DNA of 64,000 bases. It comes from a virus (Duplodnaviria > Caudoviricetes). Position numbers and translations under genes: made by a program. The notes under the pieces were generated by a model. That model saw only the letters and a list, made by a program, of their open reading frames with translations, was not told the DNA's origin and made no database searches. Location of the stretch: positions 1 to 64,000 of IMG/VR virus record IMGVR_UViG_3300021256_000077. One strand, 5' to 3'. Below, in pieces: positions 23,045 to 58,440 of this stretch (position 1 is the stretch's first letter; every line of letters begins with the position of its first letter).

Positions 23045-23887
23045 TTAAGCCCAGTTCACGGTATCACCGGATTTGTTGATGATATCACCGTTGGTGTCCA
23101 TGTGCTCATAGATCAGCTTGTACATGCGCTTGTCGGCACGACGAGGATCGATAGCGGACACGGTGATGGAGTTGGTGGCTGCAGACTTGTAGCTGGTATC
23201 AAATCCGGGCAGGGCGGAAACACGAGCACGGTACAGATACAGATGCAGGATACCCTTCAGGTTAGCATCAGTACAGTCAATACCGGAGCTGTACACGTTC
23301 CAGTGCGCGGCGAAAGCACCACGAGCGGAAGTGGAGTCGGTACGAACGGCCAGAGTATCAGCGGCCACAACACGACGGATGTAGGAAACACGCAGGGTAT
23401 CGCCCACGGCCACGTCGCCTTCGTTGAAGGTGATCTCGGTCTTACCGGGAGCATCTTCAGTAGCGGCGGTGATTTCCACCTTGAACTTGCCCTCAGCCAC
23501 GGAGTCAGCTTCCTCAGCATTGCGGATGAACACAGACCCGGTCTTAACTTCGAAGGGCAGGGTGACCTTCAGGCCATCTTCCACTTCATAACGGGCACTC
23601 TCCAGAATGCCAGTGTCGCCCTTGGTAACTTCAGAGTTAGAACCCATGATGAACATGTCCAGGGTAAACAGAGAAGAAGCGAAGGTGAATTCCAGAGTCT
23701 TGTCAGTTTCCATGTAAGCCAGAGGGAAAGCCGATTTACCACCAGTAATGGTCTAGATGTTGGAAGTGTTGGTCATGGACGCGCTCTGCACTTCATCAAA
23801 ATGGAAGCGGGTTCCATCGCAACGTTCGAAGTCGATATCAGGCACATCAAACATGTAGCCATCATAACGAGGAATATAAATTGCCAT
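23045..23887 (-). CDS. Major tail (tube) protein, 280 aa with 1 recoded TAG
   Basis: ATG 23887 after GGAGG; MAIYIPRYDGY...SNI*TITGG (TAG 23755-23753) continues into track ORF 23045..23713. Upstream of the chaperone. Confidence 0.75.
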
Positions 23888-24436: not shown

Positions 24437-24982
24437 TCACCACTTCTGAAAGGCAGCACGTACCATATCAGACGCAGCCTGCTCCTAGATCCTGTCGACC
24501 TGACCGTTATTATTGAACACAGTTCTTATTGATTGCACAATTTGTTTCCCATCATGTTCCCAACCCTTCAGGCGTCTCTGCTTTAAAGCTGGATTGCTGA
24601 TATGCATTTCGCCGTGTGCAATATCATTCGTATAAGTCCTATTACCCGGCTTAGTATACAGGCCAGAATCACCATGCTAATTACCCCGATGTCTGTTGCC
24701 GTCATCAAGTACTTCCATCATTGCTTCGATATGTGGTTTTTGCTCATCAGCAGGAACACTTAACGAAATATGGAAAGACTGATTGGTCGCATCATACTTA
24801 GGCTTATTCTGGCTCACACTTCGGTTTATTTCACCCTCTAATGCATCACTATACCATCCTGGAGGAATCTTAAATCCTTCTTGATTGCCGAGAACTGTAT
24901 GCGCAGCCTTTCCCATTTCGTTGTGCAGATCGTTTGCACAGTTTTCCAGAACAGTGAGCACCGCTTCTTCATTAATTGCCAT
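24437..24982 (-). CDS. Neck/tail completion protein, 181 aa with 2 recoded TAG
   Basis: MAINEEAVL...; TAG 24679-24677 and 24487-24485 (VDRI*EQAAS); ends at TGA 24439-24437. Confidence 0.65.
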
Positions 24983-25811
24983 AGTCCGCCTCATCTCCTC
25001 CGGCAACTCTGCGTGCATACTAACCAAGCACGCCATGAGCACGGTTGATATCGATCTCTGACGTAACCCGGTCAACCACACGATAGAAATACTCGTCCAC
25101 GGAGAACATATCACCGATTCGAATCTTTGCCGTTGTCGGATTCCACTGGACCGAGACAGTCATCAGGTTATTCGGGGTGATGCCGGGATTACCGCTGGCC
25201 TCAGCATAATCAGGACGTCCCGCATACTATGTATGGTTCGCCGGAACTTTTTCTGCAATGATATCCCGTCCGCGCCTTTCCTGATCCACTCCGGCCTTAT
25301 GAACCGCATAACCATTCTCATCTGTTTCTTCTTTAGCCTTGCGCGTAAACGTCAGGTAATCATTACACTTGACGATCTGCGTTGCCTGGTTGTTGGCATG
25401 GTTCTGCACATCCCAGTTCATCAGGAAAAGCACGCCGTCATCCCGGATCACGTAGTCACCCTTGAAGATGTCGAACCAGTGTTCGCACTTCAGGTTGTTG
25501 CTCATATCCGAGTTACCAATCTTACTTTTCCAGTCAATAGGCGTCTGCTGTCCACGGAAATAGAATGGCTTATAGTCTGGATTATTCAGACGGTCATACC
25601 AGTCATGGATCTACTCATAGGTATAATTCACAAAAGGCTTATCTTCCATCTATGCGTTATGCCAGTCACTGTAAAGAGTTTCAGGACTAGCAAACCTGTC
25701 GAAAGTCACGATCTCGGGCTGCGCAATCAGACTCGCGTCGATCTCTTCCTTCGTGCCCCATGTGATTCTTCCCGGGACATCAACGCGACGCTTTGGATAC
25801 ACCCTGCCCAT
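24972..25811 (-). CDS. Head closure/head-tail joining protein, 279 aa with 4 recoded TAG
   Basis: ATG 25811 after GGAGGTG. TAGs at 25652, 25613, 25229 and 25022 are all in frame; ends at TAA 24974-24972. Confidence 0.7.
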
Positions 25812-26103: not shown

Positions 26104-26547
26104 TCAACAAACCACGGTATTGTACCTGGACATATGATGCCACAGCCACCACCAGCGTTCGCGCACACGGTCAATCGTAGCCACAATATTCTTGTAAGGC
26201 TCCGTACCCTTGGTGACCGCCATGGCGTCCGTGGTGTAACTGGTTCTTGTATTCCACTGACCCGCAAGCCGCTCAAGAAACTTCAGCATGGCCGTGGCCA
26301 GAATATACGCCTGTTCATCAATCTCAAAGGCCATCCCAAATCGGACGGGAACATGTTCTTCATCGTATTCCACCAGGTCCGCACTGTATTCCATGGGGCA
26401 GCCAATGGCGATGTAAAAATCCTTGATAGCAAAGACAATCATGGGCGTCAGATCATCCAGCGATACATCAACCGGGACAGACTGCCATTCATTGTCCTAG
26501 GCCAGTTCCTCGGCCCACTCCATCAGGTCTGTTGTTCCCGCCTTCAT
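26104..26547 (-). CDS. Head-tail adaptor-like protein, 147 aa with 1 recoded TAG
   Basis: ATG 26547 after GGAG; TAG 26499-26497; joins track ORF 26104..26442. Confidence 0.65.
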
Positions 26548-27026: not shown

Positions 27027-28052
27027 TTACATAGTCGTGTCGCGGATAACAGCCATGTAAGGTCTGTCTCCATACACGATGCCCACGCCGACTTCCTGGT
27101 CCATACGGATTTCCATCGTCATGTCATCGATGTTCTGAGCACTAATGGAATCCACGCCACCCACGAAGCCGACCTTCAGAGGCCGCATATCGGGAGAGAT
27201 GGCATTGGGCACGATAAACAGCACGTGATCATCAATCACGGTTTCGGTATCGGACCCGGACTTGTAGTAGTTGTTGAGCTGGATGACATCGCTGCCATTC
27301 CAACGGCCAATATAGCCGTTCTGGTTCTGCTCATAAATCAGAGCGTCAGAGAACTGCTTGGTTCCGGTAGCGGCGGTAAATCCAGTCAGTTCACCAAGCT
27401 GACCCACCATATAGATGTCGCCGATCAGGGTAGCACCGCCACCAAAACGGGACATATGCTGCTGGGCGGCCTTCAGGGGCTGCACGGCAAGGCCCATGGT
27501 CTCCTGATAGTAAGGAGAAGCAATCTGGCCATTCAGCACGTAGTTCTGCCACAGCACGTTGCCGACTTCGCCGAGGATGGCATTCTCCATCTCGCGTCCG
27601 GCAAGCTGTACCAGATGAGCCAGGTCCACAGTGCCGTTCTTCAGTTCCTTGCGGTTGACCGCAGGACGTACGGAAACGACAACGGGAGTCAGGGTCATCA
27701 TCTTGGAAGTGATGCGGCTTCTGGGCGTGGTGGCATCAGCAGCCTGCACATAGGCATGCACGCCCTGCATCTCGGTACGGAAGCGCAGAGTCTCGTTGTC
27801 ACCAACACGCTTCACGTCAGCGATCTGATTCAGGAAGTCCTAGGCGGGAGCAACAAAGTCTTCCACCACATAGTCAACATACTCGGCCAGGAGCTGACTG
27901 TTTCCGGCGGCGGCCTGAGCCATGATATCTTTGCCGATTTCATCCATACGAGCACGGACGTCGGTATCAATCCGTTCACCCCTTGCGGAAGCGGCAAGTA
28001 CTTTGACAGCCTCATCATCACGATGAATGCTGTTTACCTTATATTCAGCCAT
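27027..28052 (-). CDS. Major capsid protein, 341 aa with 1 recoded TAG
   Basis: Track ORFs 27840..28052 and 27027..27815 are in frame across TAG 27842-27840 (VAPA*DFLNQIADVKRVG). Followed by a GC hairpin at 26993-27020. Confidence 0.8.
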
Positions 28053-28516: not shown

Positions 28517-29758
28517 TTAGTCATTCCGCAGCAGACCACCAAAGGTCTTATCAACTGCGGGGATATTCATTTCTGCAAACATGGCACTGGGCTGCGCCTG
28601 TTTAACAGGAACTTCAACTTCATTCTGCATGTCAAGTTCCGCAAGCATTTCAAAGTTCGCGGAAGCAACCGCAGATTTCACGTCCTCGTTCTCAAGATCG
28701 AGTCCGTGCTTTTTGGCATAAGCTTCAGCCTTGGCTACCTTAACCAGCCGCTCATTCTCAGCCTTCTCGGCCTTGAGATCGTCCGCTTCCTTCACCGCCG
28801 CGGCAAGCTGAGATTCGAGGTTAGCGATCTTCGCATCACGCTCGGCAATCATCTGCTCGGTGCGCACCGTATAGGAATGGTACTCTTCCGTGGTGATATA
28901 GACGGGAGCGGGCTTCGCTTCTTCCACAGGAGCGAACACTTCCGCAGCAGCCTCTTCGCCTTCAGGCTTTTCCAGAATGGCAGGATTATCAATCGCGGCC
29001 ACTTCTTCGGTGGTTTCAGCCTTAGCCTCTTCCTTGCCTTCAACTTCGACTTCGACCTCGGTTTCAGGCTTCTTTTCCTCAACCACTTCGGCTTCAACGG
29101 TTGCTTCCGTCTCCGTCACTTCGGCCTCGACCAATCCTTCCATCTCTTCCTTGTTCATTGCATTCACCTCTTCCGGCTCATTGTCCTTGCCGACCTCTGC
29201 CGCCAAATCCAGCGCAACCGCCTCAGGATAAGCCGGAACCGAAACGATTGTCATTCCAGAAAGAATGTTGTCGGGATGGGCATCCACATACATCGTCTCC
29301 CCATCATACACAACGCCTTTCATGGTGTACGAAATTTCGAACGAGAAGCTGAGCTTGCCCTACTCCCACATCTCTGTGATCGCGGTGCATACCCGCTTTC
29401 GGCTCTTCGGAATCCTGGCTACTCCATACAGGCTTACGCCGAATTCATCATTGACCTTCTCGAAAGAAAAGAAACTTCCGACCTGGTCACCTCTGTACTC
29501 ACCACTCTGCTTATCATACATATGCGTGAGATGATCGTAATCGCGGGCGAGAAGCTTTGCTTTGTCCGCAAACAAGCCCTAGCATTTCAGCGCATCTCCT
29601 CTGGCAATCATGTCATCAATGAATGCTTCGGTCACGCCTTCATTATTGCGATTCGGCTTGGTGGTCATCATCCGCATCTTGATGGTAAGGAATGATTTGT
29701 TGGCGGGCTGAGTCAGCGACACATCAGAAGCCATGAGATGCAGCATTCTGACGTCCAT
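28517..29758 (-). CDS. Prohead protease with acidic scaffold C-terminus, 413 aa with 2 recoded TAG
   Basis: Track ORFs 29579..29803, 29360..29575 and 28517..29323 share one frame across TAG 29581 and 29362. Motifs PNRNNEG, LTH, FSFEI, VSVPAYPEA; Glu-rich tail. Confidence 0.8.
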
Positions 29759-29864
29759 TTCAATCAACCCTTTTGATTCCCCGCACCGCGCTAGGAGGTA
29801 CACGCTACGGGTATTTTATGTAAAAAGGGACGGCGTTTTAGTCACCGTCCCGACTTACATCAGA

Positions 29865-31493
29865 TTATGTGGCGGGACTTGATCCTTCTGGATTGCTTGG
29901 CTTGGGCAGCCGTCCCGTCTCAGATTTGTAGGGATCACTGGAGCGTTCTTCCACGGAAAGCGTTGGACGTCCGAGTGTGGTTTCTTCCTTCTCATCGGTC
30001 TCCTCTTTCCGGCTGCTCCGGTAATATGTCTTGCCGTCACGCACGTAAGTGGACTTACCTTCCGGCACTTCCTCCACGATCATGTCCTGCACAATGTCAG
30101 GCTTGATCAGCGTGGCATCCGTACCGTTGGAAGCTTCACGTTTGCGGCGGGCAATCTCCTGCTCGATGTCCAGTCCGTAAGAATCGAGCATGGTCTGCTT
30201 GCTGACAAGACCTTTCTCATACAGGGCCTTGCAGGCTTCCTGAAGTTTCTGACTGCCGTTCAGATCGACAGGCGGATACGTGAATTCCGGGATTCTGTCG
30301 TCCGACATATGGGGCAGTCCTTTCAGGTGCAGTTCGTTCAGCCTGCGGTTGATCCGGTTCATCATGGCACAGAACTTCTGCCGTGCCGACTTGATACGGA
30401 TGGCCGCAGTCTGCATGCTGACCTGTGCGGTAGCGAACGTGGATGAGTCGCTTGTATTACCACTCACCATGATCTCGCTCACGCCACCCGCCGCCAGAAT
30501 CTGGGAATTGACGGATGCGTACTTGTCATACCGGAACAGGTCTTCCAGGTCAGGCTGATAGAAGTTCGCCTCGCAGAAGGCATCCGTTACCACCAGTGCT
30601 GTCCCGGTCATGGCCTTGCGGAAACCGTTACGCACCTTGCTGAGGGTCTCTTCATTCGGCCCGATATGTCCTTCCTTGTCGCCATACTTTACATGGCAGA
30701 AGGAACGCATGCTCAGATTCAGCAGAGCGTTTTCCCAGTCCGCAATCAGCGACTTCTTCTTCAGTGCAAGCAGTGCCGACGCGATCATCGGAACCGCATA
30801 CCGCATCCAGTCTTCCTTCACATCCTGCATGGCGAAGGTATTCTTCGGATTCAGCTGAACCCAGCCAATCCCCTTCCGCTTCCGAATCTCGTCCGCCACC
30901 TCGGGCGGATATCCCTGAAGCAGAACGTTCAGGCTATCGTCGTCGATGTACCGCTTGCTGGATCGGGCCAACATCCAGTGGTTTTCCTTCACAATGGACA
31001 GGGCGTTGTACTCGATGATCGGCTCACCGTCCACGGCCACGCCAGCCACCCTCACATGATGCGGGGGAAGCGTACGGATACGTCCGTCTTCGAATACGTA
31101 CACGAACACGTTGGCGTATTTCCAGTACTGGTAAAACACCGACATGGCAAACGCTTCGAAGTTCATGTTCTCATAGAACCGCAGATACTTGTTGATGGCC
31201 TCCTCACTGCTTCCCTGGAGACGAACCTTATCCACGGTGGAGAACGGTACATAGACTTCCTTGATGATGCCGCGATAAATGCTGTCGGCATCAATGTAGT
31301 AGTCACTCAGCTTATACTACTCGTAAATATAGTGCTGCTTGTTTCGAAGAATCCGCTCATACGGAATGCCCTCAATTGTTCCGGCGTAGGTAACCTCGTC
31401 GGTAACATAGGTCATGGTCAGACCCTGTTTTGAGTCGAACGCATCATCTTCGGCAATGGCCGCACTCATGTTCTTGATTTCTTCCAAACCCAT
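29865..31493 (-). CDS. Portal protein, 542 aa with 1 recoded TAG
   Basis: ATG 31493 overlaps the terminase stop (TGATG). TAG 31319-31317 (IYE*YKLSDYY) leads into track ORF 29865..31235. Confidence 0.78.
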
Positions 31494-33202
31494 CACATCC
31501 AGTCTGAAATGTCATCCACCAGCACAACCCCGCCGTCGCTTCCGCCATTACGGAACTTGCGCACATTGTCATCCTCAAGGTCAGCAATGTAGGCCAGTGC
31601 GTAGGAAAGCGAACTGTATCGGTCTTTGTGCTGATTGCTTTTGGCCGTGCCGATAATCGAGTTGCCTGCCCCGGTGGTTTTGGAAACAATGTTGCCCATC
31701 TCGATTTGAAGCGCGTCGGCCTCACGGAAGATGGCTTCCTCCTTTTCGTCGAAGCGATGCCGGGTATCACTGTCCCCTGTCACTTCTTCGTTCACATCCA
31801 CCAGGCGGTGGTTGAGCAGTCGGCGTGAATCCACGGGAAGCTCAATCGTATGCCGCTCAAGTGCCACCGTGGTCACGTTCACGCATCGGAGGTTGAATGC
31901 GTTATTTGCATCGACCCCGCGCAGAAGCGGGATCGCGTTATGAATGGAAGACCGCTCGGTATCCATAACAAGCGGCGGGTATTCCTTCTGAGTGGCCGGG
32001 TCTGTCCACGGCTGACTCAGGAACTCTGGGAAAGAATTGCCGATGCCGTGATGGTCAAACACCACCTTGATCGTTCTCGGGAAACGCACAAGGAATTTCC
32101 GTAGCTCTTCTGAAAGCCGCGTTAGTGTGTATCCGTGGAACGTCTGGATGCAAACCACCTTCTTGATATAGGACCCGTCCTGACACTCCACAAGCTTGAT
32201 GACCGTAATCACGGAATTGTCCGCGCTTGTTGTGCCGGAAACAGCTATATCAATGCCGATCACGTAATCGGATATGCAGTTATTCGGCTGTCGGTATTCA
32301 ATGTTCTTCAGCACACGGCACTCTTCAGTTTTCTCATACGGGAAAAGAGATCCCGTTTCCGCGCCATGGAATATGGATCCGTATTCCATCTCGAACGCTT
32401 CCTGCGTCATCTTCGCACGTTCGTTCTCGAAGAATGCCATAGCCGTTATGCCTACCCGCGCCGATGAATGGTAATCCAGAGCACAGGCAAACTTGTATTC
32501 ACTACCGGGCTTGCCATCCGCAATGTCCCGCAGAGTCTGGGTGAATCGGTTATAGAACTGATTCGACTTCTTGCAGGCACTGGTAATGCTGATCTGCTTG
32601 CTCCGGTAATCCTGAAACTCATGCTGCAGAGCCTGGTCGCGGGTGGTATTCAGAACAGGGGAAGCAACGGACTGCCAGTCGCTGTCGTTAACCTCCGGTG
32701 CTTCGTCTACCACCAGAACCTTGGCACGCTGTCCACGGAATGTGGTCATGGAGAAGGACTCGATGACGCTACCGTTCTTCATGGTACAGATGCCCTTCGC
32801 CCTGGAAATACTCACCGGGTTGCGGCCACGTGACATATTGATCTCACGTAGCACATTGGGATTTCGCACGAAGATATCCGCAATCTTCTGAAGCACCAGC
32901 GTTGCCTGTTCGCCCGTGCCGGAGATCACCGCAATTCGGCTTCCAGGATACAGGACGGCCAGCGCGATACAGCAGATAGCCACAAGCCACGTCTTGCCCG
33001 CGCCACGGTTCTTAACGATGTATACCTCAACGTTGTTGCCGATGGCCCGTGCCTCGACCTGCTGGATATCCTTGAGCTTGATCTTGAAGTATTCCTCAAT
33101 AAAAACATCAAGGTGCGTCCGCCAGTACCAGACCTTCTATGCGAATGCCTTAAGGTTCCGCTATTCACGCCCCTTGATGTAGAGTTTATCTCCGGCTCTC
33201 AT
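31493..33202 (-). CDS. terL: Terminase large subunit, 569 aa with 2 recoded TAG
   Basis: Walker A RGAGKT lies upstream of the track start; Walker B VVDEA; nuclease GIDIA...KDRYSS. ATG 33202 overlaps the upstream TGA; TAGs at 33163 and 33139. Confidence 0.9.
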
Positions 33203-37058: not shown

Positions 37059-37134
37059 TGTCGGTGGTGGGATTTGAACCCACAGTTTTACGGTTTTAGA
37101 GACCGCCCCGTCTCGCCAATTGCGGCACACCGAC
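37059..37134 (-). tRNA. Amber suppressor tRNA (anticodon CUA), Leu-like identity elements, short variable loop, no encoded CCA
   Basis: GTCGGTG TG CCG CAATTGGCGAGA CGG G GCGGT CTCTAAA ACCGT AAAACT GTGGG TTCAAAT CCCAC CACCGAC A; anticodon CTA at 37099-37097. Confidence 0.92.
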
Positions 37135-37135
37135 G

Positions 37136-37729
37136 TTAATAGCCGTAAAGGTGGACGGGATTCAGAAACGGGTTGCTCAGTGTCTCCTGCATGTTTGCCC
37201 CGGCTGGAATCTGCCATACCGGGCCTTCTGGCTCAGCCTTAAGCCGCAAATGATACAGCATGTGATCATAGTCTTTCGGCGTCATGCTAAGCATCTTTGC
37301 CAGTTGGTATCCCAGCTCCCGCCGTTCTGGTGACGGGTCGTAGGTCGAAGGAAGCACGTGAGCAAGCGGTGACGGGTCAAGTGCCTCGTCATCCAGAATG
37401 AGTTGATCAAGAATCAAATCCTCGATCATCCACTGCCATGCCGTACCCCACACCGCGAACCAGTCCTCGTACTGCCCGTACTGTGGAATCAGCCGCAGAA
37501 TACGTTTACCATCTGAGGCCCACATGAAGTCGCAGAAACGGCTGAAGACATGCCGGAAGAAGAGGGTATCACCCGTTCCCCGTATGTAGAAAAGGCAGCG
37601 CAGAGCAAGGTTCGAGTCCTCGCTCCATGCCGCCTGGAATACATGAATCATTTCGTCCGGCGGAAGTCGGCTAAGCTTTCCCGCCATGTCATACATCTTC
37701 TGAACCGCGCCATTCATTGGTTGCCTCAT
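37136..37729 (-). CDS. DUF2828-like (Ro60/TROVE-related) helical protein lacking the vWA domain
   Basis: FQAAWSEDSNLALRCLFYIR...IPQYGQYEDW...LAHVLPS...LAKMLSMTPKDY resembles the DUF2828 N-terminus. ATGA overlap with the upstream gene; stop lies 1 nt before the suppressor tRNA. Confidence 0.55.
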   Translation of the reverse strand: MRQPMNGAVQKMYDMAGKLSRLPPDEMIHVFQAAWSEDSNLALRCLFYIRGTGDTLFFRHVFSRFCDFMWASDGKRILRLIPQYGQYEDWFAVWGTAWQWMIEDLILDQLILDDEALDPSPLAHVLPSTYDPSPERRELGYQLAKMLSMTPKDYDHMLYHLRLKAEPEGPVWQIPAGANMQETLSNPFLNPVHLYGY

Positions 37730-38946
37730 TTTAGTCTGATTGGATATGTGCAACGCCGTCCATATTCGCGTTCCATAACCAGAGCAATGGCTCCAGGCTC
37801 TCCGCCCATCTCACACGCCACCGCATAGTCATTCATGCCGCAGATTGACGGGACGCGCAGGATCACGCTGTTGCCATCACGGGTTACGCCCGCATTGAAT
37901 TCCTCGGCCTTATGCAGATGGCCGCAAAGGAAGAAGTCCACAGGGACTCCGTAAAGGTTTACGCTGTCTCTGGCAATGTCGCTGATCTTCTTGCCAAACG
38001 CGCCGTCGCCATGAAGAAGCATGAAGTGGTAATCGAAGACGCTGAAGTACTCGCGCCGTTCGCCCTTGCCTTCCACGGAAACAAGCTCATTGTCCTGGAG
38101 TCTGGCTTTCAGATACCAGAGGATAATTCGCTCAAGGTTTTCATCCTCGAACTCGCGTGACTTCGCACCCAGCGGCCTGACCTCGGAATGGTTGCCGTTC
38201 ACAGCATGCACGACCACGTATGCGTATTCCGAAAGGGAATTAATCCATTCTGCGAGATATTCCGCAAGGTACATGGTCTGGTCGATCACGCCGTACTCAA
38301 GTTTGGTGAGCTGGTTTTTATGAATCATACCGTCAATCATGTCGCCTACGAAACACAGGTGAACCACGCTGACTTCCTCGTGCATTACGATGGCGGCCGC
38401 CTGATCAAGCAAGCTGTCCATCCGCTTCTCAAAGATTTCCCGGTTGTAGGCGTTCAGCACATCGTCCCCGCGAAGACCCTTGATGTTGAACTCCGCGCCG
38501 TAATGCATGTCGCCTATTCCAAGCACAAGCTCCCGGTTCTCGGTGCGATCCGTATAGACCGTGGGTGAAACTGGCGGGCGTTCAAGCTTGGGCATCTGTC
38601 GTGCGGCTTCCACGATGGCATCGGCCAGTTCCTGCCGTCTGGCATCGCTCCGCATGTAGGAATTGATTTCCCGCCTGAGGTCGCGCAGTTTCTGTTTGTC
38701 ACCGTAGACCGAAGTGCCGTCGTAGGCCGTGACGTTTTCCTCATGGGGCGTGCTTGCACGACCCTGCTCAGCTTCCCCGGCCTCCAGGTCTGCCACGAAC
38801 TCCATGCCCACCGCAGCCTTCCGCAGATGGTCGGGCGTCATGTCAAGGTCGTAGAGATCAACAAGTTCGCTCCAGTCTATATCGGCCTAGCCACGCTTCT
38901 TGGCGACCGCCTGTTCCAGAAGTTGTCGCCGTTCGGCCAGACACAT
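37726..38946 (-). CDS. Calcineurin-like metallophosphoesterase with 1 recoded TAG
   Basis: GDMHYG, GDMIDG, GNHSE, HGD, GHLH motifs. N-terminal extension across TAG 38889-38887 (KKRG*ADIDWSE). Confidence 0.8.
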
Positions 38947-38950
38947 CTCT

Positions 38951-39658
38951 TCAAATTTCCGTCCCAATTTCCTTTACCGCTCCTTCTGGCAGTCGTTCCA
39001 TGTTTTGATCATAGAATATGCCGTTCTCGGATACGATGACCGTATCCATTGCGTAGTACATGCCAAGTCCCGTTTCCTGCCCGCCGTACTGCGGTGCGCT
39101 CAGATGCCACGTGCGTCCGCCCCAGTGGAATATCCCTTCGGTGTCCACCCGGCATCGAGTGAGATCATGGAAGCCGCCAATCTTCCGCTCCATGGCTACG
39201 CGCTCCTGCCTGTCCAGCGTTTTCGGTCTGGGTGCGGATTTGCGCTTTACCTTGGGAATGGCCTCATCCAGCGTATCCATCACTTGCCGGAAAACGCGCC
39301 ACTCCTCGGCGTCCCCATTGGGAATCCCGGGCGTAACGTGGCTGCCGATCTGCTCGGACACACTGGAGGGACATGAGGATACCGGGATCTCCCTGGCCGC
39401 ATGAACACGGGCCTTGTAGTCAGTCTCGATATCCTCCATGTCGCCCTGAAGCAGGAAATAGGCAAGGCTGTCCTAAAATCGCTTTACTTTCATTTCTGGA
39501 GAGTAAAGGTCGCCATGGTCGTTATCCCAGTTGCGCAGGCAATAGGTTTCCCAGCGGCCTATCAGCTCGTTGGCAATCTCCATCCGTTCTTCGAAGCTGT
39601 CCGTTTCGACGAACCTCGGATACCCCGTCGGCTGCGCTATATGGAATCCTCTTCCCAT
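38951..39658 (-). CDS. Hypothetical protein, 235 aa with 1 recoded TAG
   Basis: Track ORFs 39473..39667 and 38951..39439 are in frame across TAG 39475-39473 (VKRF*DSLAYFLL). Confidence 0.7.
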
Positions 39659-39696
39659 GTTATCCACCCTTCCCTATGTTTATATCAAACAAGTGG

Positions 39697-40793: not shown

Positions 40794-41123
40794 TCAATCC
40801 CTGACTTGAGCGTAGACTTCCAACCATCTGCGGTTGTTCGCCTCCACGATCTTTGCCACCGCCGACTGAAACGCCCGCCTGATCCGATCCCGGCTAATCC
40901 CGGTGTACGAGGAAACGTCGCCCATCTGCATGCCCCGCTCCTAGCAAGCCACCACGCGCCCCTCCAGCTCGTCCAGGCCAGCCGACTCCTTAGCCGCATC
41001 AAGGGCGATGTAGGCCAGGATGGCGTCCTCCTTGGCTGGGGCCGCGCTCCGCTCCTGAATCTAGGCACGAACGATGCGGGCCTCACTCATCGGCAGGTAG
41101 CTCCAGTCTTCAATTCTCCTCAA
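40794..41123 (-). CDS. Sigma-70 region-4-like HTH regulator, 109 aa with 2 recoded TAG (missing from ORF track)
   Basis: TTG overlaps the upstream TGA; translation ...LPMSEARIVRA*IQERS...AGLDELEGRVVAC*ERGMQMGDVSSYTGISRDRIRRAFQSAVAKI; TAGs at 41063 and 40943. Confidence 0.7.
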
Positions 41124-43144: not shown

Positions 43145-43885
43145 ATGAAGAAGAATATCGCTGTGGAACTCTCTCTGCCTGAATCTATCCTGTATCCTAC
43201 TCTGTCTCGTGACTTTGAAGAAGTCAAGGCCTACTCTGACGCTACCCGCGCCTATGACAAGGCTGTCGCTGATGATAACGCTACCACCACGTCTATTCAG
43301 ACCGCGAAGGTGACAATGGACAGTGCCCGCGATGCCGTCGCTGAAAAGTCCCTGCGTACCTATGCCGTCAAGATGGAACAGCTCGCGCAAGAGGTGGGCA
43401 AGCCTGTTACCTACCTGAAAACCGTCTATCCGTACTATGCCACCTGTCAGATTTCCCATGATGGCGGGTATGGCGCGAATATCGCGAATGACGGCGCGTG
43501 GGTGACGCTGTACGACGTCATCGACGTGGAAGCGTCCGGGATTGTGCGCAAGCTCTATCAGGAAGTCATGAAGCGCGTACAGGTCCAGTACATTCAGGAA
43601 GGATTCGCCACGGGCGAACTGGGCGAAAACACCGTATCCGGGAACTGGATTCGCAAGCAATTGCTCGAGATCGTCAGCAAGTACATCGACCCGGAAGGCG
43701 AATATCAGGCCGTAACCATGGATGTCAAGCAGATCGAGGGCGCGTTCCTGACCACCTTGAAGAACAAGACGAACGTGGTCAAGCTTCCGAAGGAAGACGA
43801 ATTCGACCGGGTCGTGCTCAGAGTTCTGAACAGGATTTGCACAGGTGGCCACTATGAGTTCGAGGTCAAGAAGGCCCGCAAGTGA
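43145..43885 (+). CDS. First early gene, hypothetical 246 aa
   Basis: AAGGAAGG RBS; followed by a strong terminator. Confidence 0.7.
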   Translation: MKKNIAVELSLPESILYPTLSRDFEEVKAYSDATRAYDKAVADDNATTTSIQTAKVTMDSARDAVAEKSLRTYAVKMEQLAQEVGKPVTYLKTVYPYYATCQISHDGGYGANIANDGAWVTLYDVIDVEASGIVRKLYQEVMKRVQVQYIQEGFATGELGENTVSGNWIRKQLLEIVSKYIDPEGEYQAVTMDVKQIEGAFLTTLKNKTNVVKLPKEDEFDRVVLRVLNRICTGGHYEFEVKKARK

Positions 43886-43887
43886 TC

Positions 43888-43921
43888 GAAGGGGGTTCGC
43901 CCCCTTCCTTCTTTTTTTTTT
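43888..43921 (+). terminator. Rho-independent terminator
   Basis: GAAGGGGG TTCG CCCCCTTC followed by a long T run. Confidence 0.75.
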
Positions 43922-43990
43922 GTTCCTGGAACGACCAGCGCGTTCCAAGATTTTTTTTTTTTTTTTGGATTTTTTTTGGAGGTGCGAACT

Positions 43991-44269
43991 ATGGGATTGT
44001 TCATCACAAATTCTTCGGAACTCATGGAAATTCTCGGAGTTAATCAGGCCGTTGCTTCTAGCATGGCTAATAACATCGCTCGATACTTTGACAGTAGAAA
44101 AGAAAAGCTAATGACAACAATCGTTGTCATGTTTAAGACGCTTGCCCTTGCAGAGGTCATCGACGGCGAAACATTCGATTCAACGACTATCTATTTCATG
44201 CTAGAAGATTGCTCATCCGCCCGCGAGTTCGTCGACGAGCTTCGCAAACTGAAGGAATACTATGCCTGA
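43991..44269 (+). CDS. Hypothetical protein
   Basis: GGAGGTG RBS; track ORF. Confidence 0.6.
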   Translation: MGLFITNSSELMEILGVNQAVASSMANNIARYFDSRKEKLMTTIVVMFKTLALAEVIDGETFDSTTIYFMLEDCSSAREFVDELRKLKEYYA

Positions 44270-44315
44270 GGGCTGAACGGCCCTCTTTTTGTTTGGAAGA
44301 AAGGAAGGAATCATC

Positions 44316-45155
44316 ATGAAAAAAATTATTCGCGTTATCCGTAAAATGTGGCTACTCTCAAGAGAAACCGTCGCCCGCATCGTAACGACCGCCCTGGCAA
44401 TCATCGGAGCATACGAACAGGACAACGTCCCGGTCAAGATTTCCCTGAGCCGTGGCAACCGCAAGATCGGCAAGGCCTACAACTTTAGCACGATGCCCGT
44501 AATTACCTGTGGAGCATGCCACGACTGCAAACGGGGATGCTATGCCATGAAGTCAGCAGCCAGATACCCGACCTGCATCCGGGCATGGAGCAAGAACACA
44601 TTCATGGTTAGACACTTCTTGTCCGATGTCTACGAACAGCTCACGGAAGAATTCCGCAGAGTGACCAAACCCGAAAACAAGTACTGTCGAATTCACGTGG
44701 CAGGTGAGTTCGAAGCGACCGACTACGCAAAACAGGCAATCGTGGACAAGACCACGAGAAAGTTCGGATGGGCAACACAGCCTATCGAGTTCACCCGGTG
44801 GGGTGAGCTTGCAATGTGGGTACAGCTTGCCCTGGAGCACCCGGACTGGACATTTTGGACCTACACCAAAATGCACTGGGTGGTCAATCTGTACTGCCTG
44901 CTCCATGGCGGTAGGCATGCCGTCCCCCGCAACCTGACCATCATGTTCAGCCGTTGGGGGCTTCGAAGCAAGATCGACAACCCATATGGATTCCCTGAGT
45001 TTATCACTGTTCTCACCGACGAGGGCGAGACCATGCCCGAAGGGTTCTGGGTCTGCCCCGGAAGGTGCAAGGAATGCAAGAAGGAAACCAGCAAGGACGG
45101 CAAGTGCCACGGATGCCTTGCTAACGAAACCACTGTGACCGAGAACCATAACTGA
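44316..45155 (+). CDS. GP88-family protein (Cys-rich, radical-SAM-like)
   Basis: GNRKIG..FS..PVITC..C..C..GCYA, RIHVAGEF and FWTYTK motifs. Confidence 0.7.
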   Translation: MKKIIRVIRKMWLLSRETVARIVTTALAIIGAYEQDNVPVKISLSRGNRKIGKAYNFSTMPVITCGACHDCKRGCYAMKSAARYPTCIRAWSKNTFMVRHFLSDVYEQLTEEFRRVTKPENKYCRIHVAGEFEATDYAKQAIVDKTTRKFGWATQPIEFTRWGELAMWVQLALEHPDWTFWTYTKMHWVVNLYCLLHGGRHAVPRNLTIMFSRWGLRSKIDNPYGFPEFITVLTDEGETMPEGFWVCPGRCKECKKETSKDGKCHGCLANETTVTENHN

Positions 45156-45444
45156 TGTGTGCCCGGGCGTGGTGGATTCCCGCCCGGGGAAAGGAAATGA
45201 ATATGACAGATTATGAAATCATGCTGGAAAATATGCTGAATTATGAAGAAACGATGAGCGAAATTAATGCGGAAATTTACGAAAATGATTGTATCTATGC
45301 GGAATGAGGAAAATACCCAATGCGGAAAATTCTAATGCAATTAATGGGCAAATTTGTCCACATAATCCATGCCGGAAATAATGCGCAAATTAACACATTA
45401 GCAGAATTTAATGGGCAAACCAACGAATAAAGGAGAAATGCATC

Positions 45445-47658
45445 ATGAAGTATGTACTGTATATGCCAAGTAAAAATATTGTTAAGGTATTCGACGTACG
45501 TGTTAAGAAAGACAGGCATGATATGTTCAATTTCATGCTGGAAAATTACGAAAATTGTGAGTCGTTCAAGATATATAGAGCGACGTTCGAGCTTGAACCT
45601 GTTTGGTGGACGGCGCGGAGTTTCCACGGCCAGGTCATGGAAATCGAGTTCGGCGACCGCTACGGGACGGTCTACGACACCATCTCGATTCAGTATGGGG
45701 AGGAATGAGAAATGATCGCGATCTCTGGCAAATACGGCAACTTGGTATATGAAACCGTCGAACCAGAACCCGAACACGAACCCGCCAGGGTGGTCTACCA
45801 TGGCCACCACTACGTGGAAGTGGATGGGCACATCTACGTAGAACCGGGCTATTACGCAGTCGATGACGGCAATCATCCGGGTTGGATTGACACCTTCGTC
45901 ACCAAAGAAGCTGCCCAGAAATGGGTGGAGCACCTTGAAAACGAGGGCTGTGCACCCTCATGTATCTACGTACTACATGATGAAGTAAACCGATGCGGAA
46001 TTTGCAGATTATCGCAAATCCAATGCGGAAATTCTCGCAAATTGTCGCAAAATTAATGCGGAAAATTTGTAAATAATCGCAAATCCGTCCGGAAATTTCC
46101 GTGCGGATTTTTAGATTGTCGCAAAACGAAAGGAACAGTAATTATGATTAAGCAGATTAATAAACTTCAGGACTGGGTGCGGATGAACTTCGAATTCATC
46201 CCTACTCGAATCGTCGCGAAACTTATGGAAGCCGGGGAAGACATCCCCGAACTGACCCCTACTGACGAGGAATACGACGACGTGCTGCCCATGTGGGGAA
46301 CCATGTGGAGCTTCCATGAAGAACTCGATTCGAGCTTCATCAAAAAGATCGCGGAATGCGGATTCCGGGTATTCTATCAGGATGACCTTGGATATCTCAT
46401 TGGAATTGACGGTGGCGGATATGACTTCATGGAAGCACACTGGCTTCCGTTGTATCGCGTATTTGGCGGAACGGATATTGACTAACAACTAATGCGGACT
46501 TTCTCAGATATTTACACGCCAGGGCTGATTATCGCCCTGCGTTTTTAAGTGCGGAATTTTCGCGGAATTGAAAGGAGAAAAAATATGAGAACATATAAGC
46601 TATTTCGTGAAAAGAATGGCAAACTCTACCCCTTATTTGTAAACGCCAATGAGGAAGTGCCCGTTGGCGAATGGCTTACCGCTCAGATCGGCGCGAAAGC
46701 TGATGATACGCATGTTAAATCCCGTCTTGGCGCGTTGTCACTTCGTCCGGGTTGGCACTCGTGCACCGTGCCGTTCACGGACTGGATTGGCAAGAAAGGT
46801 ACGGACGGAAAGCTGTATCAACGGCCCGGAACTGTGTGGGCTGAATGCGAAATTGACGGCGAACCGCAGGAAGTTACCGCCAGGAACGGGCTGCGGGAAC
46901 TCCCGGATACGTGGTATCACTTCCGCACCAACGCCAAGCAGATTTGGCCTTGGATCATTTCCCGGAAGATCAAAGTTGTGCGGACTCTGACCCATGAAGA
47001 GGTCGAGCGGATTTGCGAGTCGTACGGAATAAAAGCGCAGGAGGTGGCATAACATGGCAACCATCAGCACCAGGGACGGATATAAGTATGTTCGCCTTGC
47101 GGAAATCCCCATGAACGATGGGAAGTTCAAGTTCAATGGTCGCGAATATGACTTGGATGCGGATTTTGAACCGATTGGATATCCCGAGTTTTACGACGAT
47201 GAGGACGGTAAGCTGCGTTTCCTGTCCTATGTGGAACGTGAAGAGTGGCGCAACCCGCTCATGCTGGAAGTCGGGGAATACATGGACGAGGTAATCATAT
47301 ACAGGGAGGAGAATGAAAATGACTAAGACTGAATTTATCGAGAGCATGCAGAACTTCATCGACGAACTCAAAGAAGGAAGTTGGGGGTGCTTTGATCCCT
47401 CAAAGGGTGTCACCCTTTTTGGAAACAAAAACTATGGTGAAATTTGGATTGATGTATCCGAAAGCTGCACGATCAACGCAAAGCTGTACACCGCAACCGA
47501 AGAAGAAAAGAAAGGCTGAGGTGCGGAAAATGTTGAGATCAGAAATGTTGGAACAGGAACGCCGTGAGAAGCGCAATGCCATCACGACGTTTTTGATTGA
47601 AGGAATCCTGACAGGCCTTATGGCAATGGGTCTGTTCTGGATGGCAATGCATGTGTGA
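45445..47658 (+). CDS. Run of small early hypothetical genes (45445, 45712, 46144, 46574, 47054, 47313, 47530)
   Basis: Tightly packed track ORFs with GGAG RBSs and TAA/TGA stops. Confidence 0.55.
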
Positions 47659-47674
47659 TGAAAGGAGAAATAAC

Positions 47675-48697
47675 ATGAATCTTTTATCTCTCTTTTCCGG
47701 GATCGGAGCGTTCGAACGTGCGCTCCAGGAACTCGGCGCGGACTTCGACATCGTGAATTACTGCGAGGTCGATCCGTACGCCTCGAAAGCATATTCCCTT
47801 CTGCACAACATTCCAGAATCGCGGAATCTCTGGGATGTGCGGAAGGTGGATTGTAGGAGATACCCGTACGGGAAGCTTGATCTCCTGACCTATGGCTTTC
47901 CATGTCAGGACATCAGCATTAACGGCAGGAAGCAGGGCTTCCGCAATGAGGACGGCACGACAACACGAAGCGGACTGTTTACGGAGGCCGTCCGTATCAT
48001 CCGCGAGACCACGCCGAAGGTGGCGATTGCGGAAAATGTCAAGAACTTGCTGTCCACTGGGATGACGGAAGCACGTCAGATCGTGGCGGAAACGCTGAAT
48101 CGATCTGGCTATAACAGCTATTGGGCAGTGCTGAATGCGCAAGGCTTCGGCATCCCGCAAGCCCGTGAGCGGGTGTTCATCGTCAGCATCCGCAAAGATT
48201 TGGACGATGGGAGCTTCACCTTCCCTATCGGATTTCCGCTGACCAAACAGGTAGCGGACTTTCTGGATGCGGAAGTGCCAGAAAAGTTCGACATACCGGA
48301 ATCACACAAGGCGGGCATGGAATGGCGAACCCACTATGAGAACATGGATGACCCGTTCGGCATCCACTGGGTCGGAAACCTCAATCATTACAACTACCAC
48401 AAGATGAACAGAGTCTATTCGGCGTACGGAAGCTGCGCCACTTTGGACACGGTTTCAGGTGGTGGTCGGGCAATGAAAATTCTCGCCCCGGATGGCAGGG
48501 TACGGTATCTCACCCCTGACGAGTACTTCAAATTGATGGGGTTTACGCAGGAAGACGTTGATCTTCTGCGGGCAAACGGGCTGAGCAATTCCCGCCTGTA
48601 TAAGATGGCCGGAAACAGCATCGTTGTCCCTGTCGCAAAGGCAGTATTGAAACAGGTTATCAATGCGGAATTTTCGCAGATCGAAAGGAGCGCATAA
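47675..48697 (+). CDS. dcm: DNA cytosine-5 methyltransferase
   Basis: LFSGIG, GFPCQD, ENV, QARER and AGNSI motifs. Confidence 0.92.
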   Translation: MNLLSLFSGIGAFERALQELGADFDIVNYCEVDPYASKAYSLLHNIPESRNLWDVRKVDCRRYPYGKLDLLTYGFPCQDISINGRKQGFRNEDGTTTRSGLFTEAVRIIRETTPKVAIAENVKNLLSTGMTEARQIVAETLNRSGYNSYWAVLNAQGFGIPQARERVFIVSIRKDLDDGSFTFPIGFPLTKQVADFLDAEVPEKFDIPESHKAGMEWRTHYENMDDPFGIHWVGNLNHYNYHKMNRVYSAYGSCATLDTVSGGGRAMKILAPDGRVRYLTPDEYFKLMGFTQEDVDLLRANGLSNSRLYKMAGNSIVVPVAKAVLKQVINAEFSQIERSA

Positions 48698-48699
48698 CA

Positions 48700-50215
48700 A
48701 TGACGGAATACAGAGTTTTGATAGTGACAGCCAATAATCGCACCATTCAGCTTGGTGTGATAACCGCTTCCCCTTCCGCAACGGTCGCGGAGTTTATTGG
48801 GGAACTTCATCGGGGATTCTACATCCCCCTTGGACTGCCGGAAGAGATGGTGAACGTAGTGTATAGCCGCAAAGATCACCTGTTCATCGTGAAGGATTTA
48901 CTTCATCGTGAAACCGTGTGCTATCTCCACCAGGTGGCGTAACGAATAAGGAGGAACGAACAATGGCTAACATTTTCACGGTCAAGCTCGAACGGATTGA
49001 AACTCTTATGGTTAACGTGATCGCAGATTCTGCGGAAGATGCGGAAGATATCGTCGAGTCCGCAGTATATGACGGACTTACAGTTTCGGACTTCTTTGAG
49101 AATGAAGTTGTCACGGAAAGTATCAGCGCCTCTGCCATGAGCAAGACCCGTGGTTATGGGGTTCAGATGCTTCCTGACGAGTTCTACCCGGAAGAAGACG
49201 AGGGGGCGGGAGCATGAGTATATGGGAGTGGTTATGGCCCGACCTCTACTCGGGCCTCCCCCTTTTCAACTGCGGAATGAAGGTCGGGAAGATTTCCGTC
49301 AAGACCTGCGATAAATGCTACCTGCGGAGCGTCTGCAATATCTATGCAGAGCACGCCAACGATAAGAAGGAGGAAACGAAATGATTTATACCGCTGAAGA
49401 AATGGAACTGCTCACAAACAATGTACAGCAGATTGAATCTTACCTGCGCGGATTGATGCCGGAAATTCGGAAGCCCATCCATATTGAGTTCGGCGATATC
49501 ATTACCCACCCTGGTAACTATGGACGTGTGACGATGGAAAATGAGTACGAACTTATCGTTGATAATGATGATATCTGTGGTCGGCATGGTTGCTTTACCC
49601 TCAATTTTTTCGGTAAAAGGTCTGACAGATCAGCTTGGACGGTTATTCCGATCTATACCCCGCGTGGTGCGGATTACATGATGAAACTGTGCAGAGACTG
49701 GAAGGTTATCAAGTACAAGATTCTCGTTGAAATCAACAAGCAGAAATCGGAACTCGAACAACTGAAAAACTTTGAACTGTGAATAAGGAGGAAACGAAAT
49801 GAAATGCTCTTGCGGATGCAATGAATTCTATGCACAGCAAATCTTGTATGTAAATGTGATTGTCGATGGTCATAACAATTTTCTGCGGAATGAGCATGAA
49901 AAAGAAACGGATAACTTTGTGCCGGGGCTAGATATTTATGACTGTGAAGCTCCGTACGGACCATTCATTTGTGTAAATTGCGGAGAAGTATATGACAAAT
50001 TGGAGGGATGAACAATGGCAACCAAGATCAAAGACCTCAAGCATGGCGAGTTCTTCACGCTGAAACCCATTGCGGAACCTAAGGAATCTCAGGTCTACGT
50101 CCGGGGCGAATATGATCGCTCCGAGCGGAAGTACTGGGCACAGAAATGGAACGACATCGGCGACGGCAAGTATCTGGACGGTAACCGCACTGTCTATACA
50201 GATTTCACATTCTGA
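48700..50215 (+). CDS. Run of small early hypothetical genes (48700, 48963, 49381, 49799, 50015)
   Basis: Track ORFs, most preceded by AAGGAGGA. Confidence 0.55.
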
Positions 50216-50229
50216 AAGGAGAATTGATT

Positions 50230-51108
50230 ATGGCTAAGTTCGATATTTATCAGATGGTAACCGACCGTATCCTGAACGACCTGAAAAACGGCACTGTGCC
50301 GTGGGAAAAGCCGTGGACGAACACGACCGGGAATACGGTCGCCAGGTCGCACAACGATGGCCGGGTCTATTCCCTGCTGAATCAGATGCTCCTCGGGATT
50401 CCGGGCGAATATGCAACCTTCACGCAGGTCAATAAGGAAGGTGGCAAGGTTAAGAAGGGCGCGAAGCAGAGCGTCGTGGTCTTCTACAAGCTTATCCAGA
50501 AGAAGGAAAAGGTCACGGATGATGACGGCAACGAGGAAGAGACTACTGGCCGGAAGATTCCGATTCTGCGGTACTCCGGGGTCTTCCATCTGGACGATAC
50601 GGAAGGCATCAAGCCCAAGTACGTCAAGAGTGCAGGATTGAATGCGGACAATCACACGATTGATGAGATTGATGCGGTGGTTGCGGACTATCTGAATCGC
50701 TCTGGCGTGGTGCTGCGCCACTATGAACAGGATAGTGCGTTCTATAACACCAAGTCGCACGAGGTGATCATGCCTAAGATCGGCCAGTTCAGAAATTCGG
50801 AAGCCTACTATGCTTCCCTCTTCCACGAACTCGGCCACAGCACCGGGAAAGCACTGGGACGCGACATGAGCGGGCAGAAAGAGAAGTACAGCCGTGAGGA
50901 ATTGGTCGCGGAGATTACTTCTTCCGTTCTCTGCAATCATTTCGGAATAGACTCCGCAAAATTGGAGCGGAACACGTCATCTTACATCAAGGGATGGCTG
51001 AAGCCCTTGCAGGACGATCCGAAGATGGTCGTCTGGGCCGCAAATCGTGCGGAAAAGGCGGTCAACCTGATTCTGAACATCACGAAAACGAACGAGGAGG
51101 ATGAATGA
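50230..51108 (+). CDS. ardC: ArdC-like antirestriction ssDNA-binding/zincin protein
   Basis: VPWEKPW, YSLLNQ..L, YATFTQ..GGKVKKG, HELGHST and EELVAE motifs. Confidence 0.85.
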   Translation: MAKFDIYQMVTDRILNDLKNGTVPWEKPWTNTTGNTVARSHNDGRVYSLLNQMLLGIPGEYATFTQVNKEGGKVKKGAKQSVVVFYKLIQKKEKVTDDDGNEEETTGRKIPILRYSGVFHLDDTEGIKPKYVKSAGLNADNHTIDEIDAVVADYLNRSGVVLRHYEQDSAFYNTKSHEVIMPKIGQFRNSEAYYASLFHELGHSTGKALGRDMSGQKEKYSREELVAEITSSVLCNHFGIDSAKLERNTSSYIKGWLKPLQDDPKMVVWAANRAEKAVNLILNITKTNEEDE

Positions 51109-52828: not shown

Positions 52829-52841
52829 GGAGGAGCGAACA

Positions 52842-54605: not shown

Positions 54606-54720
54606 CTCAGGAAATAGAATCCAAAAATCGCGTCCAGACCTCGGGATGATAAATTGATCGACCTTGGGTCTGGAACGCGAAATTGTATGAAAAACTATTG
54701 TAATTGTGGAGGTTTGAAGT

Positions 54721-55317: not shown

Positions 55318-55373
55318 TTTCACATCGTTGCAATAAAAACACAGAAATTGTTCCTTTATAAGCATAAGGAGGT

Positions 55374-56670: not shown

Positions 56671-56683
56671 GGAGGCCGATATT

Positions 56684-57277: not shown

Positions 57278-57372
57278 CAACACCCCTGCGACGATTTTGT
57301 AAAAGAAAACAGCCCGCAGGCAACATTCCTGGGGCTGTTTTGTGATTACGATTACAAAGGAGAAAGCGAACA

Positions 57373-58293: not shown

Positions 58294-58314
58294 ATGGATA
58301 CCTCCTTCGGACGC

Positions 58315-58402: not shown

Positions 58403-58440
58403 TCCAGCCTTGTCGATCACCATCATAATAGGAGGAAACA

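Follow-up and report, generated by a model that had tools for sequence, protein, structure and literature searches.

A compact tRNA(CUA) of probable leucine identity in a phage with TAG-recoded late genes

We analysed a stretch of 64,000 nucleotides from the genome of an uncultured tailed phage of gut or rumen (Caudoviricetes; IMG/VR record IMGVR_UViG_3300021256_000077), which is called the window in the following and corresponds to bases 1-64000 of a linear contig of 97,487 bp with a completeness of approximately 84%. The window carries late genes on the minus strand, including packaging, head and tail genes, and an arm of early genes on the plus strand. Located among the late genes is a gene for a small tRNA with the anticodon CUA, tRNA(CUA), which is the sole tRNA on the contig. 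This tRNA and the in-frame TAG codons of the late genes are the subject of this report. The gene was detected as a full-length match to the Rfam family RF00005 at 37059-37134 (minus strand), with 53.5 bits compared to a gathering score of 29 (E=1.1e-8 for the whole window), and ARAGORN reports the same gene at 37058-37134 (minus strand) with the anticodon CTA. When the 15 kb around the tRNA were compared with cultured phages by megablast, no match was obtained, and an exact-pattern scan of IMG/VR with the stretch from the anticodon to the T arm also found none.

Read from the minus strand, the acceptor stem of tRNA(CUA) consists of GUCGGUG/CACCGAC with a G1:C72 pair and the discriminator A73, and two bases, U8 and G9, join it to a D stem of 3 bp (CCG/CGG) that is followed by an unpaired C13.A22 (a 13:22 mismatch). 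The D loop, AAUUGGCGAG, is 10 nt long and includes A14, A15, U16, U17, G18 and G19, with A15 and U48 forming the Levitt pair. The anticodon arm, GCGGU-CUCUAAA-ACCGU, has a 5-bp stem and presents CUA at positions 34-36 between U33 and A37. The variable region AAAACU comprises only 6 nt, ends with U48 and lacks the long arm of class II tRNAs, a structural hallmark of bacterial tRNA-Leu, while the T arm reads GUGGG-UUCAAAU-CCCAC; CCA is not encoded in the gene. The first-pass annotation of this DNA had described a clean cloverleaf with the anticodon CTA, a series of identity positions (among them G1:C72, A73, G9 and A15:U48) and a variable region of only 6 nt. Rfam and ARAGORN agree on this fold and every listed sequence detail is present; sister phages carry class II CUA tRNAs. 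Seven compact CUA tRNAs of related phages share one cloverleaf with a 3-bp D stem and show compensatory double changes at 18 of the 20 pairs, while U8, A14A15, U33-CUA, U48 and A73 are invariant among them.

Among the genes counted, in-frame TAG codons are confined to the late genes (Table 1). According to a curated gene list, 14 of 28 late genes contain together 38 in-frame TAGs, equivalent to 3.9% of all Leu plus TAG codons, and not a single TAG is found in the 18 plus-strand early genes (5175 codons). All 46 stops of the late and early genes are TAA or TGA, never TAG. In the left 42 kb, the standard code leaves the minus-strand genes in fragments, which are rejoined by reading through TAG; for example, eight fragments merge into one tape-measure-like open reading frame (ORF) of 4898 aa when 16 TAGs are read through. 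This length is unusual, and the homologue in the closest relative, G001, has 2903 aa. Alignments to relatives cover 25 of the 38 TAGs. The TAG-free arm encodes an integrase, two C5-methylases, an ArdC-like protein, a primase-helicase and DnaE (Pfam), and extends with DnaE beyond the window to contig base 68964. The absence of TAG from this arm means that the early genes would be read alike with or without the tRNA. The idea of a phage-encoded suppressor, raised in the first-pass annotation, thus gains support from the phage contig, the 38 in-frame TAGs in late genes and the lack of TAG stops.

Table 1. The tRNA(CUA) gene, TAG-containing late genes and further features of the window (positions refer to the window; residues with counts are those of relatives aligned to the TAG codon)
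Feature	Position	Strand	Evidence and residues at TAG codons
Late gene, TAGs at codons 20 and 35	637..1590	-	no aligned relatives
Tail protein, 2 TAGs	2298..5720	-	phrog_6616
Distal tail protein (Dit), 2 TAGs	5721..6785	-	phrog_33; relative has L and M at those sites
Giant tape-measure-like ORF, 4898 aa, open only via 16 TAGs	6873..21569	-	homologous to 2903-aa ORF of relative G001
Virion structural protein, TAG at codon 45	23045..23887	-	phrog_2729; L 8, I 7, V 6
Structural-module gene, TAGs at codons 54, 67, 195 and 264	24972..25811	-	54: L 19/19; 67: L 14, I 3, M 2; 264: L 8, I 5, M 3, TAG 3; 195: E 19
Small structural-module gene, TAG at codon 17, variable column	26104..26547	-	alignment to relatives
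Head-module gene, 'capsid' by position only, TAG at codon 71	27027..28052	-	phrog_4088 (function unknown); T 28, L 2, F 1: non-Leu column
Head-module gene, TAGs at codons 75 and 148	28517..29803	-	codon 75: L 34/39
Portal protein, TAG at codon 60	29865..31496	-	phrog_2739; L 30 (of 45), F 9, I 3
Large terminase, TAGs at codons 14 and 22	31493..33202	-	phrog_2; codon 14: I 27, L 13, V 4; codon 22: K 27, E 9, M 6, L 2
Compact tRNA(CUA), Leu-type body, 6-nt variable region	37059..37134	-	Rfam, ARAGORN, covariation, Leu signature
RNA-binding-protein-like gene, ends 2 nt before the 5' end of the tRNA	37136..37753	-	phrog_850 'RNA-binding protein', E=6e-13
SbcD/Mre11-like exonuclease, TAG at codon 27	37726..38967	-	phrog_284, E=4e-54; TAG inside alignments to 38 loci
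Late-arm gene, TAG at codon 65, near-invariant Leu column	38951..39667	-	L 29, TAG 1
Small gene, TAGs at codons 21 and 61	40794..41123	-	codon 21: L 15, TAG 8; codon 61: L 16, V 5
TAG-free early arm: methylase, ArdC-like gene, integrase, start of primase-helicase gene	43145..64000	+	Pfam; 0 TAG

The amino acid encoded by TAG was assigned from alignments to related phages. A terminase search of IMG/VR returned one near-identical fragment and two relatives with 62% identity, and a further search with the alignment of these matches yielded 48 loci with 37-62% identity. The late proteins, with TAG written as X, were compared by tblastn to 47 related viral loci and each aligned residue was tied to its codon; loci with more than 90% identity were collapsed, leaving 29 clusters. 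In a Codetta-style likelihood, each codon of the phage was then scored against the column profiles, and TAG sites were required to have at least 5 clusters aligned. As a control, the true amino acid was recovered for all 60 sense codons with at least 6 sites; CAA, represented by 4 sites, was the only sense codon that failed. For TAG (16 sites), Leu scored +19.4 nats, followed by Ile (-11.6), Thr (-18.6), Met (-20.0) and Gln (-26.4). Several TAGs occupy conserved Leu columns, with Leu in 19/19, 29/30, 34/39 and 30/45 relatives. Leu is therefore the amino acid that fits the TAG alignments.

When only relatives without in-frame TAG were considered, Leu accounted for 41 of 97 residues at TAG sites. 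Across the clade, 108 columns contain at least one TAG, and in these columns Leu represents 46.7% of the other residues compared to 7.6% overall, a 6.2-fold enrichment, while Gln is depleted (2.1% versus 3.6%). Relatives that were scored singly also gave Leu, for example L011 with +26.6 (15 sites), L051 with +22.6 (14 sites), the L023 cluster with +16.4 (16 sites) and the L034 cluster, which carries a compact tRNA, with +8.5 to +10.7. Thus, relatives with compact and those with long-arm CUA tRNAs independently score Leu. TTG, which is one step away from TAG, showed no excess among the Leu codons at TAG columns (14.2% versus 13.1%), and the base following TAG was not biased in comparison to the base following Leu codons (p=0.29). 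The Leu identity suggested in the first-pass annotation is hence supported both by the residues aligned to TAG, which are overwhelmingly Leu, and by the A73, A15:U48 and 13:22-mismatch signature of the tRNA.

This signature was defined by comparison with a reference set of 43 tRNAs from a Clostridia (Acutalibacteraceae) metagenome-assembled genome (MAG). The combination of A73, A14A15 and U48 occurs in 4/4 tRNA-Leu and in 0/39 other tRNAs of this MAG. A non-Watson-Crick 13:22 combination is found in all four of these tRNA-Leu, and 13:22 is a mismatch in 8/8 Leu tRNAs examined. Within phage tRNA arrays, A73, A14A15 and U48 coincide in 4/4 Leu tRNAs, in 10 of 11 CUA tRNAs of the clade and in two other tRNAs only; with the 13:22 mismatch added, no non-Leu, non-CUA tRNA of the arrays is left. 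The tRNA(CUA) of the window has all four features, and A73 is present in 13/13 segmented CUA tRNAs of the clade. Compared to the MAG tRNA-Leu(CAA), its acceptor stem is identical at 12 of 14 positions, U8 and G9 are shared and the D loop contains one inserted base. The anticodon arm, which had initially been called Trp/Tyr-like, instead resembles that of Leu(CAA): its loop CUCUAAA differs from CUCAAAA of the Clostridial tRNA solely at nt 35. Neither is the pattern of tRNA-Gln present, as had been noted before, since the reference tRNA-Gln has U1:A72 and G73 compared to G1:C72 and A73 in the phage tRNA. The body of tRNA(CUA) is most likely descended from a tRNA-Leu, and judged from its sequence both the body and the anticodon loop appear closest to Clostridial tRNA-Leu(CAA). 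In E. coli, LeuRS (leucyl-tRNA synthetase) recognises A73, the A15-U48 pair, G18G19 and A20a, while neither the anticodon nor the long arm is a determinant, and armless variants stay active (PMC9976931).

The first-pass annotation had seen no synthetase or release factor in the window. A six-frame search of the contig, approximately 84% complete, with PF00133 (class Ia synthetases) and PF00472 (release factors) revealed neither family, and the same result was obtained for five relatives with compact CUA tRNAs, four of which are 94-100% complete. All contig ORFs of at least about 280 aa have other assignments or no Pfam match. As no aminoacyl-tRNA synthetase or release factor of the phage was found, the host LeuRS is the likely charging enzyme. 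Cultured phages with related terminases infect Bacillota without exception (145/145), with Clostridium phage c-st as the best match (31%), and strong GGAGG (Shine-Dalgarno) motifs precede the gene starts. For these two reasons a Bacillota host is supported, probably a member of the Clostridia from gut or rumen. Searching GTDB genomes for the host returned only two MAG contigs, from Alloprevotella (53%) and Acutalibacteraceae (38%); both are possibly binned phage contigs, and the host phylum therefore rests on the cultured-phage relatives and the Shine-Dalgarno motifs.

Taken together, we consider it likely that tRNA(CUA) is a working phage amber suppressor of Leu identity with a compact body, which is charged by the host LeuRS and decodes the 38 UAGs of the late genes as Leu. 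A tRNA-Leu ancestor would have acquired the anticodon CUA and lost its long variable arm. The host LeuRS would read A73 and the corner formed by D and T loops (A15:U48, G18G19) without regard to the anticodon or, at least for the E. coli enzyme, the extra arm, and would leucylate the tRNA. The charged tRNA would then decode the UAGs of the 14 late genes in competition with the host release factor RF1. The terminase, the portal, head, tail and tape-measure proteins, the exonuclease and a small regulator-like gene would depend on this decoding, while the early, integrase and replication genes would give the same product in either code.

Several observations weigh against this interpretation. Four of the 16 TAG sites fall on columns that are dominated by T, E, K or variable residues, and the alignments cannot fully separate pure Leu from Leu mixed with a minor other residue. 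In whole-body similarity, tRNA-His (0.74) ranks before tRNA-Leu(CAA) (0.73); Leu(CAA) leads with 0.68 versus 0.64 when the gap for the arm is made cheap. Because whole-body similarity is indecisive, we relied on identity positions. The reference MAG is not necessarily the phage host, and the identity rules are known from E. coli and Aquifex and not from the Clostridia-like host. For the Aquifex enzyme, the orientation of the variable arm is reported to matter (PMC2377443), and arm-free leucylation can therefore not be assumed for every bacterium. Finally, the missing portion of the contig could hold a relevant gene.

An unlikely alternative is that TAG encodes another residue (Ile, Met, Val, Tyr, Trp or Lys), or a mixture in which Leu is merely the main component. 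Ile, Val and Met are indeed present at several TAG columns, and in E. coli LysRS or TyrRS can respond to a tRNA that has both A73 and U35. Also in its favor, a published isotype prediction assigned 10% of phage Sup tRNAs to 'Ile' (PMC10879173). However, Ile stays behind Leu by 31 nats, Met by 39 and Tyr, Lys and Trp by more than 46, and recognition by IleRS, MetRS and ValRS depends on the anticodon. The phage tRNA also differs from the reference tRNA-Tyr, in which G15/C48 and a long arm are found.

Still less probable is that the compact tRNA has decayed or is poorly active, and that TAG is decoded by a suppressor of the host or of a helper, or by a class II tRNA or synthetase encoded in the missing 16% of the genome. 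The linear, incomplete contig and the long-arm CUA tRNA used by the closest relative, G001, would be in line with such a scenario. It is opposed by the intact cloverleaf, which compact forms elsewhere keep by compensatory changes, and by the recurrence of compact forms across metagenomes, including genomes of 94-100% completeness in which a compact tRNA is the only CUA tRNA found. The tRNA also keeps its syntenic location, with the exonuclease gene on one side and the packaging genes on the other.

Ordinary code 15 would require that tRNA(CUA) is charged with Gln, either by GlnRS or by GluRS plus GatCAB, and that TAG encodes Gln, the assignment made for crAss-like, Lak and phAss-1 phages. In E. 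coli, U35 counts among the determinants for GlnRS, which would favor this possibility. Also in its favor, Gln is the only TAG reassignment that has been reported for phages differing from their host (10.1101/2021.08.26.457843; PMC10607447). However, the difference between -26.4 nats for Gln and +19.4 for Leu, the depletion of Gln at TAG columns and the absence of a Gln-type body make it highly improbable. The lack of GlnRS in Bacillota as a factor forcing Leu over Gln was considered and dropped, since TAG-to-Gln has been reported for a phage of Clostridia, phAss-1 (PMC10607447). The ARAGORN label 'Pyl' reflects the CUA anticodon alone, and a pyrrolysine tRNA can be practically dismissed: tRNA-Pyl is distinguished by a variable loop of 3 nt and a small D loop (PMC7609411), and a single base separates its acceptor and D stems, while the phage tRNA has two (U8 G9), a 6-nt variable region, a 5-bp anticodon stem and a 10-nt D loop, and the TAG columns are Leu and not Lys-like.

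The compact tRNA(CUA) is one of two forms that exist in this group of phages. In 26 related loci, a CUA tRNA lies at the equivalent position, flanked by the exonuclease gene and the packaging genes, and tRNA(CUA) of the window occupies this syntenic place too. The CUA tRNAs of these loci are either compact (75-77 nt) or of class II, in which the variable arm measures 16-27 nt. The CUA tRNA of G001 (L004:1501-1598, minus strand) is 98 nt long with a 27-nt variable arm; Rfam detects it with 44.8 bits, but ARAGORN misses it, and surveys that rely on ARAGORN would therefore miss such suppressors. Several contigs of different metagenomic origin carry compact forms, among them the 94-100% complete genomes mentioned above. 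In a combined terminase and portal tree, the TAG-recoded phages form one clade, in which compact and long-arm tRNAs are interspersed, and the outgroup has neither in-frame TAGs nor a CUA tRNA. The compact tRNA of L010 has its nearest counterpart in the long-arm tRNA of L031: the two share acceptor and D arms, and their identity outside the variable arm is 0.73, which points to arm loss. For the tRNA of the window, the closest sequences are the compact tRNA of L034 (0.70) and the long-arm tRNA of L011 (0.68). The variable arm seems to have been lost at least twice, a reading of small molecules with weak phylogenetic signal.

Beyond this, it is conceivable, though rather doubtful, that Bacillota phages repeatedly stripped the long arm from Leu-type amber suppressors as an adaptation, leaving class-I-shaped tRNA-Leu that are still charged by bacterial LeuRS in vivo. 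Arm loss could remove recognition by TyrRS or SerRS, as a class II tRNA with A73 and U35 partly resembles tRNA-Tyr, or could alternatively protect from host enzymes or nucleases directed at class II tRNAs. If true, the UAG-to-Leu switch by which 5'-placed TAGs gate late genes would be cleaner or better protected in these phages.

Related loci revealed three further peculiarities. L054 encodes at 6054-6129 (plus strand) a 76-nt tRNA with the true Leu anticodon CAA, A73, A15:U48, C13.A22 and a 5-nt variable region, which is thus compact without being a suppressor. The long-arm CUA tRNAs at L011:7577-7668 and L051:6426-6513 (plus strand) have the anticodon loop CCCUAAA, in which C replaces the nearly universal U33. 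Single in-frame TGA codons interrupt otherwise conserved late genes of L015, L030, L032, L033, L035 and L042 and may reflect a frameshift, a sequencing error or another cause.

The distribution of the TAGs within the late genes is not uniform. The first TAG is located within 75 codons of the start in 14/14 TAG-bearing genes, and the mean relative position is 0.26 (Kolmogorov-Smirnov test versus uniform, p=5e-8; without the tape measure, p=1e-4; versus Leu codons, p=0.001). Most of the early TAGs lie inside alignments to relatives and are therefore not start-site artefacts. Such 5'-biased TAGs would be in line with a translational gate rather than with neutral codon drift. If the suppressor were missing, late proteins would terminate prematurely, while early and lysogeny genes would be independent of it. 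As the first TAG is found within 75 codons in every TAG-bearing gene, we infer that the tRNA probably acts as a gate for late genes. This resembles the model proposed for code-15 phages (10.1101/2021.08.26.457843).

Stop-codon recoding with a phage suppressor tRNA is already known. The code-15 gut phages (crAss-like, Lak, Garnet/Topaz/Agate and phAss-1) likewise carry a CUA tRNA, concentrate TAGs in structural and late genes, keep the integrase and early genes TAG-free, lack a dedicated synthetase and infect standard-code hosts. They differ in that TAG is reported or assumed to encode Gln, whereas here the alignments and the tRNA body indicate Leu. The code 15 set of earlier surveys may have included the present clade unnoticed. 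The class II CUA tRNAs of sister phages (G001, L011, L031 and L051) belong to the same clade, share the position upstream of the packaging genes, A73/A15:U48 and the inference of Leu, and differ from tRNA(CUA) of the window by a variable arm of 16-27 nt versus 6 nt. Leu amber suppressors are classical in E. coli: supP (Su6) is a tRNA-Leu in which the anticodon CAA was changed to CUA and which inserts Leu at UAG, since LeuRS ignores the anticodon. In contrast to tRNA(CUA), it is a cellular laboratory suppressor of class II with a long arm and operates outside any recoded genome.

Leucylation without a long arm, via A73 and contacts to the D and T loops, has a precedent in a minimalist E. coli tRNA-Leu lacking the variable arm and in animal mitochondrial tRNA-Leu (PMC9976931). 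The former are engineered in vitro substrates and the latter use their own LeuRS, whereas the phage tRNA is natural and must use a bacterial LeuRS in vivo. The Chlorophycean and Scenedesmus mitochondrial codes (NCBI tables 16 and 22) also read UAG as Leu via a CUA tRNA with Leu identity elements (PMC7609411). These are organelle-wide codes, whereas here a virus switches the code inside a standard-code host. A survey of phages that differ from the host code claimed only TAG-to-Gln and TGA-to-Trp (10.1101/2021.08.26.457843), and the phage literature searched contains only these two, or Gly where the host uses that code. Predicted isotypes of Sup tRNAs list Gln, Trp, Ile and Tyr, and Leu is not among them. 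The present case adds the controlled clade-wide test, a sole, class-I-shaped tRNA in a TAG-to-Leu phage and the mix of compact and long-arm forms among its sisters.

With TAG read as Leu throughout a clade of gut and rumen phages of roughly 100 kb, their database proteins would be mistranslated at every TAG, and choosing the code by coding density alone would be insufficient. An anticodon-blind LeuRS would provide a second natural route to stop-codon capture. The compact tRNA would represent a natural tRNA-Leu that functions in vivo in a bacterial system without the class II arm, which has so far been described only for engineered minimal substrates and mitochondria, and compact tRNAs are candidate small scaffolds for genetic-code engineering. 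In addition, the 5'-biased TAGs make the idea of a code switch as a late-gene gate directly testable.

Concerning the neighborhood of the tRNA, the RNA-binding-protein-like gene at 37136-37753 has no Pfam match and no homologue among the 47 related loci; it looks like a phage-specific insertion adjoining the tRNA. A scan for promoters and terminators near the tRNA found nothing on the minus strand. As the tRNA begins 2 nt past the stop of this gene and no promoter-like site is nearby, it is probably made from a long leftward transcript and co-transcribed with the 37136-37753 gene. On the other side, approximately 3 kb with few supported ORFs (34100-37058) separate the tRNA from the packaging genes; the equivalent position in relatives holds tRNA arrays. 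ARAGORN with default settings found nothing in these 3 kb, and allowing introns or lowered thresholds over 34000-37300 produced only low-threshold noise. Rfam at E<=1 detected only the tRNA between 34000 and 37800 and no ribozyme, HDV-like (hepatitis delta virus) or other, although the theta (HDV-like) motif, a self-cleaving ribozyme that adjoins the 3' end of some phage Sup tRNAs, is possibly absent from Rfam.

The contig contains further genes of potential interest. An RNA ligase (PHA02142 OB fold plus RNA_ligase; L129:2376-3473, plus strand; contig 80376-81473) might mend tRNAs that anticodon nucleases of the host have cleaved. The phage also encodes two C5-methylases, one of them together with an NgoMIV-type restriction enzyme, and an anti-restriction protein similar to ArdC; these genes lie at L129:17299-19085 and at 47651-48697 and 50224-51108 of the window (all plus strand). 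The anaerobic ribonucleotide reductase NrdD (L128:8101-11786, plus strand; contig 70101-73786) is split into an ATP-cone with the N-terminal part and a C-terminal part. Both are separated by approximately 1.7 kb, which hold an ORF without Pfam match and may be an intron or a homing element.

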